Below are positions 4,770 through 44,763 of a stretch of DNA of 64,000 nt, one piece after another (within the stretch, counting starts at the first letter, position 1; each line of letters opens with the position of its first letter). Made by a program: the position numbers and the translations under genes. The notes beneath the pieces were generated by a model. The model saw nothing but the letters and a program-made list of their open reading frames with translations, had not been told where the DNA came from and ran no database searches. The stretch comes from an uncultured Oscillibacter sp. (GTDB lineage: Bacteria; Bacillota; Clostridia; Oscillospirales; Oscillospiraceae), in NCBI GenBank assembly GCA_900770295.1, contig CAAGJQ010000089.1:31668-95667 (forward strand), written 5' to 3'.

Positions 4770-4846
4770 TTCACCAGCTGGATGCGCTTGTCCTTCGGCT
4801 TGCTGTGGCTCTCCCGGTACAGCACAAACTTGGTGCCGATGACCTG
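4770..4846 (-). repeat. downstream identical copy of the yhbY 3' region (77 bp direct repeat of 4989-5065)
   Basis: Exact 77-bp match, offset 219 bp (in frame). Confidence 0.97.
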
Positions 4847-4980
4847 CGCACCCCACGGGGCCAGCCCCGTGGGGACCCCGCATTGGACTCAAATGGTCAG
4901 GCAAAGCCCGCCCATTTCAAGATTTTGCGATTCGCAAAATGCTTGGACGCCGGATTTCCGGCGGTGTGGTCCAGGTCATC
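4847..4980. repeat. hairpin-rich spacer plus a 15-bp inverted repeat of the yhbY duplication junction
   Basis: Hairpins CCCCACGGGGC/GCCCCGTGGGG, ATTTTGCG/CGCAAAAT and CGCCGGA/TCCGGCG; 4966-4980 is the exact reverse complement of 5057-5071. Confidence 0.9.
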
Positions 4981-5293
4981 TCTTGCTTTTCACCAGCTGG
5001 ATGCGCTTGTCCTTCGGCTTGCTGTGGCTCTCCCGGTACAGCACAAACTTGGTGCCGATGACCTGGACCACTTCGGCGCGGGTGGCCTTTGCCAGCTCCT
5101 CCGCCGCGATGCGGGCGTCGTAGTCGATGCTGTTGTCCAGGACCCGGCCCTTGATGAGCTCCCGGGCCTCCAGGGCGTCATCGGCCTGCTTGACCAGATT
5201 CTCGCCGATGCCGTCCTTGCCGATCTGGAGGATGGTGTCGATGCTGTTGGCCAGACCCCGCAGCTGGGCCCGCTGTTTGCTTGTCAGTTCCAT
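4976..5293 (-). CDS. yhbY: ribosome assembly RNA-binding protein (CRM domain)
   Basis: LTSKQRAQLR..LQIGKDG..ELIK..VQVIG..VLYR motifs. Confidence 0.95.
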   Translation of the reverse strand: MELTSKQRAQLRGLANSIDTILQIGKDGIGENLVKQADDALEARELIKGRVLDNSIDYDARIAAEELAKATRAEVVQVIGTKFVLYRESHSKPKDKRIQLVKSKR

Positions 5294-7843: not shown

Positions 7844-8104
7844 CTAAAATAAGGAATTTGAACGGGGAGTCTTGTTCCAGTCATATGCTCTGCCGCAGTG
7901 CTTGCAGTGACTTCCGGGGGAACGCCCCAGCGGGGCGCCGCACTCCGGGCAGCGGCACATACCATAATAAACCAGCAGTCCCACAACCAGCGGCACAAGG
8001 CCGATGGCCATCAGCACTCCTATGCCAAAGTAGCCGATAACCGCCAGCAAAGCCCCCAGCACCATCAACACGATACTGAGGGTCAGCCATTTTTTCAGGC
8101 TCAC
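7844..8104 (-). CDS. small membrane protein with a C-terminal zinc ribbon
   Basis: Two TM segments, then CPECG...CKHCG; GGGGGA RBS before GTG. Confidence 0.75.
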   Translation of the reverse strand: MSLKKWLTLSIVLMVLGALLAVIGYFGIGVLMAIGLVPLVVGLLVYYGMCRCPECGAPLGRSPGSHCKHCGRAYDWNKTPRSNSLF

Positions 8105-8116
8105 GAGCAGTCCCCC

Positions 8117-8191
8117 TTACTTGATCTTCAGTTCCTTGGCCATGTCGTTCAGATTAATGGTCAGTATCTTGCTGACGCCCTGCTCCTGCAT
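8117..8191 (-). repeat. downstream copy of the last 25 codons of smc (direct repeat of 8327-8401)
   Basis: 70/75 identical, offset 210 bp (in frame); all five differences synonymous. Confidence 0.97.
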
Positions 8192-8326
8192 ATCGTCGTC
8201 GCAAAGTCCGCTAAGCTCCGTTTCCGCCTTGCGGTGAAAACTGCGCCCGCTCCCTTGCTCCTCCTCTTCCCACCGTGACCGCTTCGCCGGGTCACGGCGG
8301 GAGCCCTGTTGGGGCGTCACCATGCC
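8192..8326 (-). repeat. structured 114-nt module plus a 13-bp inverted repeat of the smc duplication junction
   Basis: 8313-8325 is the reverse complement of 8398-8410; module 8193-8306 is colinear with 41333-41446. Confidence 0.9.
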
Positions 8327-11300
8327 CTATTTGATCTTCAATTCCTTGGCCATGTCGTTCAGATTGATGGTCAGTATCTTACTGACGCCCTGCTCCTGCA
8401 TGGTGACGCCGTACAGCACGTCGGCCTCCTCCATGGTGCCCCGGCGGTGGGTGATGACGATGAACTGCGTCCGGCCCGCCAGGGTCCGCATGTAGCGGGC
8501 CACCCGGATGACGTTGGGCTCGTCCAGGGCGGCCTCGATCTCATCCATGACGCAGAAGGGCGTGGGGTGGACCTTCAAAATGGCGAAGTACAGAGCGATG
8601 GCCACGAAGGCCTTCTCGCCGCCGGAGAGGAGGGAGATGGTCTTTAAGGTCTTTCCGGGCGGCTGGGCCTTGATCTCGATGCCGCAGCCCAGAATGTCGC
8701 TCTCGTCCTCCAGCTCCAGCTTGGCCTGGCCCCCGCCGAAGAGGTCCGTGAAGGTGGTCTGGAAGCTCTCGTTGATGAGCTTGAACTGCTCCGCGAAGAT
8801 GGCGGTCATCTGGTTGGTGATCTCCTCGATGATGCCGCTGAGCTCCTCCTTGGCCTTTTCCACGTCGTCGCGCTGGTCCGTCAGATAGGTGTAGCGGCCG
8901 TTGACCCGGTCGAACTCCTCGATAGCGCCGATGTTGATGGCTCCAAGGGCGGAGATGTCCCGTTTCAGCTCTCCGATGCGGCGGGTGGCCTTGGGGATGC
9001 TCTCCAGCTCGATGCGCTGGGCCTGAGCATCCGTGTGGCTGAGCTCGTAGGTCTCCCACAGCCGGTCCAGGATCTGCTTTTCCTCCATGGCGGAGGTGGA
9101 GATCTTGTTCTCCAGCTTTGCCGCCGCCATCTGCAGATTCTGGAAGTTCTCGTTCAGTTCCTTGCTGGCGCGGTTTTTGGCAGTGCGCTCCGCCTCCAGG
9201 GCGATCTTCTCCTCGTTCAGCGCCGTCAGCCGGTCCCGGAAGGTCTGGCCCTGGGCAGAGAGGGTTTCCAGCTCCGTTTTCCGCCGGGCGATCTCTCCGC
9301 TGGCCTCGTCGATGTTCCGCTGATAGGTCCGGACCGTCTCCTCCTTCTGGTCCCGGTCCCCGGCCAAACTCTCCGCCAGCTGCCGCAGGTCGGCGGCACG
9401 GCGGACGGTGGACTCCCGCTCGGCGGTCAGAGCCGCCAGATCGGACTTCTTTCCGCTGATCTCTTCCGTCAGAGCCCCGGACTGGGCCAGCAGCTCTGAC
9501 TGGCCGGAGAGGGCCTCTTCGGCCTTCGCCCGCAGGCTCTCCGCCAGACGCTCCTGCCCGGCGATCTGTTTTTCCGCCTCCGCGGCCCGCTGCCCGTTGT
9601 CCTTCAGGCGGCCGGTCAGGCTCTCCCACTCGCCCTCCAGATTTTCCAGATTCTCCCGCAGGGAGCGCAGCAAAATGTCAAAGTGGTTCTTCGTACCCTC
9701 CAGCCGCAAAACCTCGTCCTCGGCCTGGCGGCGCTGGCTCTCCGCCGTCTCCAGCTCGTACTGGGCGGCGGCCAGTTCCCGGTTCGCCGCCTCCTCCGCA
9801 GCCTGGGCGGCGGACAGCTTTTCATGCATGGCGCTGGCCCGGCCGTTCAGCTTTTCCAGCTCGGCGGCGCGGCTCAGCACACCGGCGGACCGGCTGGTGG
9901 AGCCGCCGGTCATGGAGCCGCCCCGGTTGATGACCTGCCCGTCCAGCGTCACGATGCGGAAGGCGTTGCGGTACTTCCGGGCCATGGCGATGCCGCAGTC
10001 CATGTCCTCCACGATGACCGTCCGGCCCAGGAGGTTCTGGAAGATATTCGTATAGCGGGCATCAAACTTCACCAGGCGGGAGGCGATGCCCACGAAACCG
10101 AATTCATTTTCCACGCCGGGCTGGCGCAGCTCGTCGCCCCGGATGGCGGTCAGCGGCAGGAAGGTGGCGCGGCCGCCGTCCCGCTGTTTCAGGAAGTTGA
10201 TGGCCGCCTTGGCGTCCTCCTCCCGGTCCACCACGATGTTCTGCAATCCCGCGCCCAGGGCGATCTCAATGGCCAGAGACACCTGCTGGTCGGTCTTCAT
10301 CAGATTCGCCACCGGGCCGTGGATGCCCCGGAGACTATTCTTTGCCTGCATGACCGTCTTGACGGCCTTGGAGAAGCCCTCGTACTCCTTCTCCATCTCC
10401 GTCAGAAGGCGGATGCGGTTGTCCAGCGCGCCCACGTCCATGGTCAGCTGGACCCGGTGTTCCGACGCGGCGGCGGCTTTCTTCTTCCGCTCCTCCATCC
10501 GCAGGCTGTGGCCCGCGATGATGTTGGACACCGCCTCCGCCTCGTCCCGGGCATCCTCCAGAGCGCGGCGGTTGGCCCTGGCCTCCTTCTCGGATTCCGC
10601 CAGTTGGGCCTCGGCGGCGGCTTTTTCCTGTTCAACGGCGGCTTTCCGCTCCTCGATCTGTCCGTTTTCAGCGGCGATGGCAGCGACTTCCGCCCGCGCG
10701 TCCGCCGCAGCGGCCACGGCCATGGCCTCCTGGCCCCGCAGGGCCTCCGCCTGGGACTGGGCGCCGCCGGCCTGGGCCGCGGCCTCCCGTGCCTGCTCCA
10801 GCAGTCCATCCAGCGCGTGATTCAGCGTCTCGATCTCTCCGTCGATCTCCGCGATGCGGCGCTCCAGTTCCTCCGCCTGCTTCTCCAGGCCTCCGGCGCG
10901 GCTGTCCGTCTCCTCCAGCTCCGTCCGGGCCCGGTCGATGTTCTCCTGATTGTGGGTGATCGTACTCTCCAGCACGGCGATGGCGGACTCCTGCTCCTTC
11001 ACCCGGCCGTCCAGCTCGGCGGCCTCGGCGCGGATGCGCTCCGCCTCCATGTCCTTCTCCTGCATCCGAAGACCGTACTGCTCATCCTCGGCGTACAGGG
11101 CGTCAATTTGGGCCTTGGCCTCGTCCCGGGCGGCCTCGGCGGCGGCGCAGTCCGCCTTCAGCTTCTGGACGCTGGCTTTCAGGGCATCCAGATTCTCCAG
11201 CCACACGGAGATCTCCAACAGGCGCAGCTCGTCCCGCAGGACCAGGAACTTTTTGGCCTTCTCCGCCTGGTCCCGCAGGGGTTCCACCTGCAATTCCAGT

Positions 11301-11893
11301 TCGGATATCTTGTCGTTGATGCGGACCAGGTTCTCCTCCGTCCGCTCCAGCTTCCGCTCCGACTCCTCTTTCCGGTGGCGGAACTTGGAGATGCCGGCGG
11401 CCTCCTCGAAAATCTCCCGGCGCTCGCCGCTCTTGGCGGACAAAATCTCGTCGATCTTGCCCTGGCCGATGATGGAGTAGCCCTCCCGGCCCATGCCGGT
11501 GTCCATGAACAGCTCCGTCACGTCCTTCAATCGGACGGACTGCCGGTTGATGTAGTATTCGCTCTCGCCGCTGCGGTAATAGCGGCGGGTGACGGAGACC
11601 TCCGCCTCCTCCATGGTGGGGAAGATGTGCTCCGTGTTGTCGATTACCAGCGTCACCTGGGCAAAGCCCACCTGGGCCCGCTTCGCCGTGCCGCCGAAGA
11701 TGACGTCCTCCATCTTCGCGCCTCGGAGGCTCTTACTGCTCTGCTCACCCATGACCCAGCGGATGGCGTCGGAAATATTGGACTTGCCGGAGCCGTTGGG
11801 GCCCACGATGGCGGTGATATCCTCGCCGAAGTTCAGGACCGTCTTATCGGGGAAGGACTTGAATCCCTGGATCTCCAATGCTTTTAAGTACAC
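8327..11893 (-). CDS. smc: chromosome segregation protein SMC
   Basis: GFKSF, GPNGSGKSN, coiled coils, hinge GRATFLP..GSMTGG, LSGGEK, DEIEAALD. Confidence 0.98.
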   Translation of the reverse strand: MYLKALEIQGFKSFPDKTVLNFGEDITAIVGPNGSGKSNISDAIRWVMGEQSSKSLRGAKMEDVIFGGTAKRAQVGFAQVTLVIDNTEHIFPTMEEAEVSVTRRYYRSGESEYYINRQSVRLKDVTELFMDTGMGREGYSIIGQGKIDEILSAKSGERREIFEEAAGISKFRHRKEESERKLERTEENLVRINDKISELELQVEPLRDQAEKAKKFLVLRDELRLLEISVWLENLDALKASVQKLKADCAAAEAARDEAKAQIDALYAEDEQYGLRMQEKDMEAERIRAEAAELDGRVKEQESAIAVLESTITHNQENIDRARTELEETDSRAGGLEKQAEELERRIAEIDGEIETLNHALDGLLEQAREAAAQAGGAQSQAEALRGQEAMAVAAAADARAEVAAIAAENGQIEERKAAVEQEKAAAEAQLAESEKEARANRRALEDARDEAEAVSNIIAGHSLRMEERKKKAAAASEHRVQLTMDVGALDNRIRLLTEMEKEYEGFSKAVKTVMQAKNSLRGIHGPVANLMKTDQQVSLAIEIALGAGLQNIVVDREEDAKAAINFLKQRDGGRATFLPLTAIRGDELRQPGVENEFGFVGIASRLVKFDARYTNIFQNLLGRTVIVEDMDCGIAMARKYRNAFRIVTLDGQVINRGGSMTGGSTSRSAGVLSRAAELEKLNGRASAMHEKLSAAQAAEEAANRELAAAQYELETAESQRRQAEDEVLRLEGTKNHFDILLRSLRENLENLEGEWESLTGRLKDNGQRAAEAEKQIAGQERLAESLRAKAEEALSGQSELLAQSGALTEEISGKKSDLAALTAERESTVRRAADLRQLAESLAGDRDQKEETVRTYQRNIDEASGEIARRKTELETLSAQGQTFRDRLTALNEEKIALEAERTAKNRASKELNENFQNLQMAAAKLENKISTSAMEEKQILDRLWETYELSHTDAQAQRIELESIPKATRRIGELKRDISALGAINIGAIEEFDRVNGRYTYLTDQRDDVEKAKEELSGIIEEITNQMTAIFAEQFKLINESFQTTFTDLFGGGQAKLELEDESDILGCGIEIKAQPPGKTLKTISLLSGGEKAFVAIALYFAILKVHPTPFCVMDEIEAALDEPNVIRVARYMRTLAGRTQFIVITHRRGTMEEADVLYGVTMQEQGVSKILTINLNDMAKELKIK

Positions 11894-41273: not shown

Positions 41274-41280
41274 AAGATAA

Positions 41281-41481
41281 AAGTTTCGCCCGCCTCTCAT
41301 GCCCCGAAGGGGTATTTCAAAGGCGGCATCCCGGGGCCCCGCCGGAACTCAGCAAAGCGGTTCCGGTGGGGTGAGGAAGAACACACGGAGCGATGCGGGG
41401 AATGGCCGACAGGCCGTTCCGAGCACAGCGGAGTCTGTTCTGACGAGGGGCAGAGCCCCTGCCGGGTCCGGGCGGAGCCCG
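41281..41481 (+). repeat. nested palindromic repeat cluster containing a 114-nt structured module (41333-41446)
   Basis: Hairpins CCGCCT/AGGCGG, ATGCCCC-GAA-GGGGTAT, GGGGC-AGA-GCCCC and CGGGC-GGA-GCCCG; inner module is homologous to 8193-8306. Confidence 0.8.
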
Positions 41482-41486
41482 AAAGG

Positions 41487-41517
41487 ATTCCGGGGGAACC
41501 TTCCCCCGGAATTTTTT
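41487..41517 (+). terminator. terminator of the osmolyte operon
   Basis: ATTCCGGGGGAA/TTCCCCCGGAAT followed by a T tract. Confidence 0.8.
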
Positions 41518-44535: not shown

Positions 44536-44556
44536 ACCTTCAAAATTGAATCGCTC

Positions 44557-44720
44557 AGATAGAGGCGCGATTTTCATCAGTACCGTTCCGGCAAGGGCAG
44601 GCAGCCGCCGGGCAGGAAAGGGGACATCGCCGAAGCCGCGGAAAGCTGCCTGGCTTTTCGCCGCTGGGCCGCCAGAGAACATCTGCCGGACTGTCACAAT
44701 ACCTTTGTGAAGCGCTATCA
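44557..44720 (+). ncRNA. lysine riboswitch (L-box)
   Basis: GATAG-AGGCGC...AGTA...GAAAGG...GCCGAA...CTGGG...GAA...ACTGTC...AGCG-CTATC in canonical order, upstream of an amino-acid ABC. Confidence 0.9.
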
Positions 44721-44763
44721 ATGGCTGTCGGACCGTCTCTTCAGACGCTCTTCCGGATTTCCA

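Follow-up and report, generated by a model that had tools for sequence, protein, structure and literature searches.

Programmable integration by long RNA guides is known, and group I introns carry an internal guide sequence whose P1 pairing lies about 6 nt upstream of the junction. Integrative elements replace the 3' end of the gene that they enter, with a duplicated copy of this end restoring the host gene, and they target conserved genes and tRNA ends. The IS200/IS605 family has non-autonomous palindromic derivatives, and c(GNA)g and c(GNNA)g loops as well as tandem G.A pairs are typical of single-stranded DNA (ssDNA). According to the searched text of PMC5934647, IS608 carries tnpA, inserts precisely and moves as an ssDNA circle, and its left cut is set by a fixed 4-nt guide located 5' of a hairpin. 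In the same text, long guides for ssDNA transposases appear only as engineered versions of IS608. REP/BIME repeats, which are GTAG- or CGTC-tagged (searched text of PMC3733652) and go with RAYT/TnpA-REP (searched text of PMC6006769), are multi-copy, mostly intergenic, strand-asymmetric, clustering single hairpins of 20-40 (up to 65) nt. The searched text of PMC3733652 mentions neither Firmicutes nor duplication for REPs. The SRM/NTS repeats of the Ssn GIY-YIG nuclease are ssDNA-specific hairpins with a CGTC tag that are cut a few bases from this tag (searched text of PMC11893778).

Here we describe element E, a 114-nt two-arm motif that had been predicted to occur twice in the window, the whole stretch of 64,000 nucleotides that was analysed from an uncultured Oscillibacter sp. 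(GenBank assembly GCA_900770295.1). By analogy, the presumed working mode of E is most like that of IS608.

Comparison of element E with described systems

For these comparisons we used 309 copies of E. They derive from 300 loci with 340 matches, of which 19 without anchors and 12 duplicates were dropped. The locus sets were ascertained by pattern and include related genomes, so that counts overstate independence.

The likeness to IS608 as described in the searched text of PMC5934647 consists of hairpins of ssDNA, possible pairing of the bases 5' of the hairpin foot to set the left cut, a short fixed 3' terminus and a base preference past the cut. Unlike IS608, E has a target-specific, junction-straddling antisense segment of 10-18 nt, doubles 14-113 bp of host sequence, can have imprecise left ends and has no linked TnpA. 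Subterminal ssDNA-type hairpins with a fixed 3' cut, a trait of IS200/IS605, appear to be present in E. A fixed left target of 4-5 nt without duplication is not: no left flank is conserved, and long duplications are found in 50 of 285 copies. The ends of E are also not shared with TnpA-encoding insertion sequences, as the IS200-like element of this genome has unrelated ends.

Like REPs, E is multi-copy, mostly intergenic, strand-asymmetric and formed by clustering hairpins, and its opposite strand starts with a CGTC tag, as in CGTC-type REPs. This tag is the reverse complement of the fixed end, which served as an anchor, so its presence in 309/309 copies is by construction. In contrast to the single REP hairpins, E measures 114 nt, has two arms and folds on the strand opposite the tag. 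The GTAG/GTGG foot of GTAG-type REPs is found at the 5' hairpin foot of only 3 of the 309 copies, and no RAYT gene was flanked by E at the five TnpA-REP (Y1) loci of this and five high-copy genomes. The Ssn repeats are E-like in their hairpins, tag and nearby cut. However, the degenerate SRM pattern (a tagged hairpin of ~28 nt) fits 0/309 copies on either strand, and E flanks none of eight loci with a small GIY-YIG gene. Terminal inverted repeats, as expected of a MITE, match in a mean of 3.2 of 12 bases with no copy reaching 9, and a short target duplication of fixed length is absent, E having either none or 14-113 bp. Identity with a REP or MITE family had been named beforehand as what would remove the novelty of E; on the REP foot, SRM and MITE tests E falls outside them. 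By membership tests, E is outside REP repeats, Ssn motifs, MITEs and IS200/IS605.

E and integrative elements share a doubled end that restores the gene, and conserved genes and tRNA ends as targets. E differs by having neither integrase nor cargo, a unit of ~210 nt, and many unrelated targets that each have a separate antisense segment. As in the group I internal guide, a short antisense sequence extends across the junction with ~6 nt on the upstream side. Unlike a group I intron, E has no U.G pair at the 5' splice site (the junction base is Watson-Crick paired), no terminal G (the last base is A in 260/309 copies) and no Rfam catalytic core, and it has DNA-type loops and antisense copies. 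A retroelement or diversity-generating system (DGR) fits no better: a reverse transcriptase (RT) is found in one of five high-copy genomes and not near E, and the differences between the doubled gene ends are synonymous and of all types, not adenine-specific.

We found no description of units of this kind in the openly accessible literature searched. Words for the motif were absent from eight supplementary files of PMC8040213 and six of PMC10690425. E may be among the candidate RNAs of these two studies without a name.

The two copies of E in the window

The two predicted copies, and the repeat in which one of them lies, are as follows.

8193..8306, minus strand: E copy 1; G-rich foot and hairpin 1 followed by arm 2, whose internal loops are of the tandem G.A type; 3' end fixed
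41333..41446, plus strand: E copy 2; has neither a long duplication nor a guide; insertion site at the 5' foot of a short hairpin
41278..41507 (ends approximate), plus strand: small repeat around E copy 2, belonging to a family with inverted ends

Both copies are 114 nt long, and the gapless alignment claimed for their first 45 nt was borne out, with 34 of 45 positions identical. The stem changes between them are compensatory, as proposed (three two-sided changes and one G.T). The internal loop described as invariant did not hold up, as a second E subfamily has another loop. The c(GNNA)g cap stood only in part: caps vary among copies, and c(GNA)g triloops are the commonest. A strict motif pattern matches only these two sites in the 2.94-Mb genome. 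With a covariance model of E built from 27 copies they score 112.7 and 92.3 bits, and the next match in the window scores 17.3. Relative to shuffles, the fold z-scores of the motif strand are -3.1 and -2.0 as DNA and -6.0 and -4.8 as RNA, compared with -2.2 and -1.1 as DNA and -3.2 and -0.6 as RNA for the opposite strand. The predicted strand is thus the better-folding strand of both copies.

The repeat around copy 2 has an OpuA-type ABC operon on one side and an ECF sigma gene on the other. Four relatives elsewhere in the genome (G000 C83:409, C154:70663, C152:106842 and C30:3574) all lack E, and the family has DNA-type hairpin loops in addition to its inverted ends. The entire insert at 41 kb is absent from L237 and L238, the two relatives in which both flanking genes are retained. 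A hammerhead-like core beside this copy was rejected because it is absent at copy 1. The sole Rfam match in the window is a lysine riboswitch (RF00168) at 44552-44725 on the plus strand.

E is a widespread and covarying family

Further copies, which the original prediction had counted on, do exist, and E is a widespread two-arm repeat family that extends beyond the two window sites. In this genome, 12 covariance-model matches reach E-values of at most 2e-4 among the 16 matches listed. Within the order, 40 of 151 genomes have matches to the covariance model, and several genomes reach at least 24 scored candidates; across the phylum, matches occur in 4 of 151 genomes, our own included. Two pattern scans of genome contigs each identified at least 120 loci, mostly with record titles of Oscillospiraceae or other Clostridia, and a pattern scan yielded 36 viral loci. 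Two small "phage" records with E are unannotated fragments with an ICE-like look, in which E seems to be a passenger; neither has a plasmid match.

Covariation, the check proposed for E, is strong: when 27 sequences were aligned with MAFFT, two-sided changes appeared at 18 of 24 pairs. The share of pairing cells in this alignment is 95%, versus 76% after shuffling and 40-49% when partners are slid. With 108 distinct sequences aligned by fitting to the model, 22/24 pairs have two-sided changes. No Rfam match above the gathering threshold was found for E, either in the window or at eight related loci searched at E<=5, which removes a described Rfam family as an identity for E within that search.

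A unit with a doubled gene end at smc

E copy 1 is part of a larger unit at the end of smc. Read along the gene, it consists of the target, the 75-bp gene end (B1), a 13-nt reverse complement across the start of B1 (here called the guide), E, and a second gene end (B2).

8327..11893, minus strand: smc, the host target (Pfam SMC_N and SMC_hinge)
8398..8410, minus strand: target stretch, straddling the start of the upstream repeat
8327..8401, minus strand: B1, the last 75 bp of smc, translated copy
8313..8325, minus strand: guide, 13-nt perfect reverse complement of 8398-8410; starts 1 nt past the stop codon and ends 6 nt before E
8117..8191, minus strand: B2, second smc end, directly after E; five differences from B1, all silent (four codons and the stop)

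The guide is also present in three other occupied smc alleles, which were found without the guide as query. Across the four occupied alleles the guide is unchanged (2 nt shorter in one), the linker is variable and the bodies are 11-20% diverged. By eye, the exact target is present in 4/4 occupied alleles and in 7/20 empty ones (p = 0.03, with relatedness ignored). A scan with the smc guide identified 13 more smc records among 38 matches, in which guide conservation is built into the query; two of them are relics that lack B2, and in a third B2 has decayed. Between smc and ftsY we also observed a membrane-like ORF of 76 aa with Cys pairs (7877-8104, minus strand), which has no Pfam match and is variable among relatives.

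Gene-end duplications and antisense segments across E copies

The original prediction held that E was probably the cargo or recognition signal of a system that made the smc duplication. The link to duplication is real and general: a direct repeat begins 0-3 nt past the fixed end in 50 of the 285 copies with flanks (at +1 in 37 of the 50), compared with 0.75% in swapped controls (800 swaps). The system behind it is still a postulate, as our searches named no enzyme. New here are the 13-nt antisense copy of the junction at 8313-8325, a third unit at 4770-5065 (below), and the finding that most copies lack a long duplication.

Duplications are 14-113 bp long and mostly comprise gene ends. A few of the 50 are arrays of E itself, and tandem arrays of the unit were detected in 5/50 by a strict test. 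Targets identified by Pfam are smc, SpoVAC and a response regulator. Judging from the translated ends, we take further targets to be pgk, eno, tpiA, nadE, rplQ, rpsI, flagellin, RNase H and aspS. The ilvC gene, a Mg-chelatase gene and, in antisense, the start of lepA have duplications with no clear guide.

An antisense duplex scoring at least 10 was found in 22 of the 50 duplicated copies versus 1.5% of controls. The segment measures 10-18 nt, copies the upstream junction and lies directly 5' of the first hairpin, ending 0-7 nt before the hairpin foot in 21/22 cases. For the 25 nt preceding hairpin 1, the best duplex within a stretch of 130-200 nt straddled the junction in 20/23 cases, mostly with 5-11 pairs on the upstream side. 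No strong guide is present in the other 28 duplicated copies, and most E copies overall are guide-free. In the guide duplexes G.T and A.C oppositions number 19 and 20 and 299/309 inner pairs are Watson-Crick, so there is no wobble bias, which fits simple copying as well as selection. The guide tracks allele differences at eno, nadE and rplQ. The guides of three loci (L091, L119 and L159) have a mismatch at a common place, approximately the second base past the junction.

Unit length is 196-224 nt in 20/23 guide-bearing E units, and 136-399 nt in guide-free ones. The lengths of E and F units (see below for F) are narrow although repeat lengths run from 19 to 113 bp, with part of this clustering being arithmetic. 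A reading-frame constraint on unit length, suggested post hoc by 9/12 units in this genome, was rejected, as it applied to only 17/49 E units.

Codon differences between B1 and B2 comprise 61 synonymous and 16 non-synonymous changes, where 23% of random changes would be silent; this count covers 38 of 50 rows, with 12 set aside, and uses automatic frames of which a few are wrong. One pgk unit alone has 14 synonymous and no non-synonymous differences. As the differences are mainly synonymous, the copy that is not translated derives from an allele that coded for protein. The mean B1-B2 difference is 2.8 of 66 bases within a genome and 7.0 between genomes (11 loci, two of which repeat one sequence). 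The start of B2 often consists of bases that came along with the element instead of matching the target, and B1 and B2 form a patchwork (this genome versus locus L447, the smc unit of an Oscillibacter valericigenes strain). Homologous exchange, not precise re-insertion, therefore explains part of the pattern. Bodies that share a junction are often from different subfamilies. They are usually not nearest neighbours, which implies that insertion was repeated, that bodies were exchanged or that they diverged long ago.

A second body, family F, with the same layout

A repeat search of the window revealed a 77-bp perfect duplication that delimits the third unit (4770-5065, minus strand).

4989..5065, minus strand: B1, 77 bp near the 3' end of a YhbY-domain gene (4976-5293)
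4966..4980, minus strand: guide of 15 nt; its perfect reverse complement, 5057-5071, spans the point where the upstream repeat starts
4847..4988, minus strand: spacer with guide and family F body, closing with an E-type G-foot hairpin module
4770..4846, minus strand: B2, 100% identical to B1

The F body has a three-part fold distinct from that of E (spacer fold z of -6.9 as DNA), and the unit has no Rfam match. Common to both families is the hairpin with an unpaired G-rich foot. All 16 F core matches in this genome have flanking repeats, compared with 7% in swapped controls; four are self-arrays and 12 double host sequence. A duplex of at least 8 was found in 11/16 copies versus 6% in the control. 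Units measure 204-225 nt in 10 of the 12 host-duplicating cases, with repeat and spacer lengths offsetting each other. The targets presumably include the ends of tuf, lepA and fhs.

One mid-gene F unit is in frame, inside a peptidase gene. Among the in-frame occurrences of F or E inside ORFs we noted G000 C90:14958-15177 (peptidase U32-like), L462 and L463 (DnaC-like end, ICE protein). In other genomes, F-like sequence was seen by eye beside E (L009 and L150). Another repeat of ~160-225 nt, flanked by duplicated terminator-like palindromes of 22-37 bp, occurs at G000 C37:3812, C83:48816, C93:14490 and C148:35438.

Mobility and insertion sites

Empty and filled E sites were both observed, so the prediction that the family is mobile proved correct. 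At the smc locus of 24 same-genus genomes, the unit is present in three and absent from 20, with one allele unresolved. Within this genome, a repeat of ~700 bp has five empty copies and three with E inserted cleanly. This repeat is non-coding with imperfect inverted ends (G000 C145:1899-2611, C110, C95, C163, C133 and C122). A 6-bp duplication proposed there is better read as a clean insertion: the start of E resembles the target, and identity between start and flank is not enriched. The rRNA operons of one genome (G245, L385-L389) have E in some spacers and lack it in others, the 3' end of E lying 1-3 nt before tRNA-Ala and 23S rRNA. Other empty alleles suggest that a few left-side bases are replaced (15 rows, including some self-matches and several diverged species), and the left junctions of ordinary copies look imprecise. 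No same-species alleles of E sites were found in metagenome contigs.

The bases directly 3' of E are GG in 80/235 ordinary and 25/50 duplicated copies. In two genomes E terminates exactly at the 5' end of tmRNA (L182, G000 C106; and L295), and in several cases it abuts tRNA 3' ends on the opposite strand. Copies also end at palindromes, which we take to be parS-like. A general preference for hairpin feet was rejected (p = 0.45 overall), though it is seen at tmRNA, tRNA and these palindromes. Together with the covariation, these observations support E as a structure-conserved mobile family with a fixed 3' end.

DNA or RNA

Structures of ssDNA and RNA are hard to separate computationally (searched text of PMC5737381). 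On the motif strand of E, stem-closed loops comprise 170 GNA, 61 GNYA, 38 GNRA and no UNCG loops, compared with 10 in all on the other strand. In hairpin 1, G.T oppositions outnumber A.C (202 versus 38). Both neighbouring genes were resolved for 147/309 copies, of which 102 have both neighbours in sense and 34 have both in antisense orientation, with 10 convergent copies and one divergent. The sense bias is ~3:1 overall and 22:2 in phages. An RT match is lacking in four of five high-copy genomes. As a gauge of a possible lagging-strand bias, G exceeds C on the E strand in 17/20 fetched regions (five being rRNA operons) and in 6/13 in this genome. Loop types and orientation favour ssDNA over RNA for E, which falls short of proof.

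A possible mechanism and its alternatives

Any explanation has to accommodate that the elements move, that their 3' end is fixed with GG preferred after it, and that long duplications, a junction-straddling antisense segment at a set place, silent divergence and two bodies are observed. We propose that E and F are non-autonomous mobile elements that would work as folded ssDNA, with the fixed 3' end joined preferentially to a target beginning with GG. Ordinary copies insert cleanly or replace a few bases. A putative trans-acting ssDNA strand-transfer enzyme, perhaps most likely one with HUH/tyrosine chemistry of the IS200/IS605 kind, may bind the G-foot hairpin, and the bases directly 5' of this hairpin would set the left cut via pairing. 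Where these bases match a stretch of the upstream gene, the unit would consist of gene end, guide and body, ~200-225 nt in all. It would exit as a circle and re-enter an empty allele at the identical site, so that the gene stays intact and its end is present twice. B1 and B2 would then be patched by recombining with each other. That E and F act as ssDNA is likely; for ssDNA action, strand transfer by a trans-acting enzyme, a left cut set by the guide, a ~210-nt circle and homing taken jointly, we infer an even chance. In favour of this proposal count the duplications directly past the fixed end, the antisense segments across the junction and beside the hairpin foot, the recurrence of this layout in F, the narrow unit length, the mainly synonymous B1/B2 differences and a guide that is constant at smc and follows the alleles at other genes. 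Against it count the negative search for a partner enzyme, the missing wobble bias, the B2 starts that travel with E, the B1/B2 patchwork, the many duplicated copies with no strong guide and the imprecise left junctions, which are unlike IS608. Our most far-reaching reading, with a probability of roughly 0.4, is natural DNA-guided homing by protein-free units of ~210 nt, each with a reprogrammable 10-18-nt ssDNA guide and the target gene end, circle excision and gene-sparing re-entry. At the same tentative strength, these units would depend on one trans-acting enzyme or, less likely, on catalysis by the folded DNA itself, with at least two bodies on one hairpin module.

A possible, if doubtful, competitor regards the duplications as repair scars. 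E and F would be REP-like ssDNA repeats that insert by one-ended, target-primed insertion, with the 3' overhang of a staggered second break becoming the duplication. The overhang would fold back and be extended by a few bases over the junction, giving a functionless inverted copy; only events that rebuild a gene end would survive, and gene conversion would homogenize the two copies. The fixed right end with a variable left junction speaks for this explanation, as do the near-perfect antisense copies without wobble bias, the L062 repeat that extends 5 nt into the antisense segment, the bodies of different subfamilies at one junction and the patchy B1/B2 exchange. Features that it leaves unpredicted are the narrow range of unit lengths in both families, an unchanged guide beside a variable linker and diverged bodies, the repeated use of one junction in several genes, and divergence through synonymous changes alone at up to 14 codons. 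Overlap of the repeat with the antisense start is also missing from most units. Recurrence of the segment (22/50 in E and 11/16 in F) argues against a one-off event, though not against a scar as such.

Two further explanations are improbable. In the less implausible one, homology drives the process: the body would be a priming or nicking signal for local re-replication, presumably resembling primosome-assembly or ssi signals, RecA-type single crossovers in the gene end would spread the unit, and the antisense segment would help strand loop-out. Tandem unit arrays, the element-inherited B2 start and the B1/B2 patchwork are consistent with this, which nevertheless leaves unexplained the fixed 3' end and the spread of ordinary homology-free copies. 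We consider it very improbable that E is a self-splicing or self-cleaving RNA whose antisense segment is a group I-like internal guide, and which removes the unit from a transcript or frees mature RNA 5' ends. The strong RNA fold, the sense bias, the 3' ends at or just before tmRNA, tRNA-Ala and 23S rRNA, and the P1-like pairing of the guide ~6 nt upstream of the junction would suit such an RNA. Against it stand the DNA-type loops without any UNCG, the 34/147 copies antisense to both neighbours, the antisense units at the lepA start and antisense copies at tRNA 3' ends, and the lack of RT in most high-copy genomes. Moreover, terminator-like hairpins precede the guide in some units, the junction U.G pair and terminal G are both missing, B1 already completes the gene, and the sole mid-gene unit is in frame.

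If DNA-guided homing is correct, a natural version with dozens of target-matched guides would represent a new mobility strategy and a possible tool, and every natural unit would be a ready substrate with a predicted cut site. Even as a scar, this is an abundant repeat system, absent from the sources searched, that doubles and remodels core gene ends (smc, pgk, eno, tuf, lepA and rplQ) and enters rRNA operons of major gut commensals. Its standing as a new kind rests on the layout and the failed membership tests; were the duplications scars, E and F would be REP-like repeats.

Search for a partner enzyme

Clustering of 1,583 neighbouring ORFs of at least 80 aa revealed no dedicated enzyme, and Pfam scans of 177 ORFs adjoining E (nearly all from 254 adjacent representatives) contained no recurrent transposase. 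The adjoining ORFs are housekeeping, phage and ICE genes, with single matches to IS110, relaxase, HNH and serine recombinase. Conversely, no E was found near 24 loci with Y1, GIY-YIG, RT or Rep-like HUH genes. A Y1 query had no match near E copies, and a Y1 match is missing in two of five high-copy genomes. One candidate, a Rep-like HUH gene (PF23343), is located within 2 kb of E in four viral loci; it was rejected, as no E lies near four further homologue loci or the three copies in this genome.

High-copy genomes do contain divergent, RAYT-like Y1 genes with E-free flanks (L402, L403, L404 and L401). A high-copy Oscillospiraceae genome (L411, G104 C27) also has an Ssn-like small GIY-YIG gene, which is flanked by different, canonical CGTC-type hairpins. 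CRISPR-like arrays are present in this genome at G000 C4:15378-16250 and C101:260-860.
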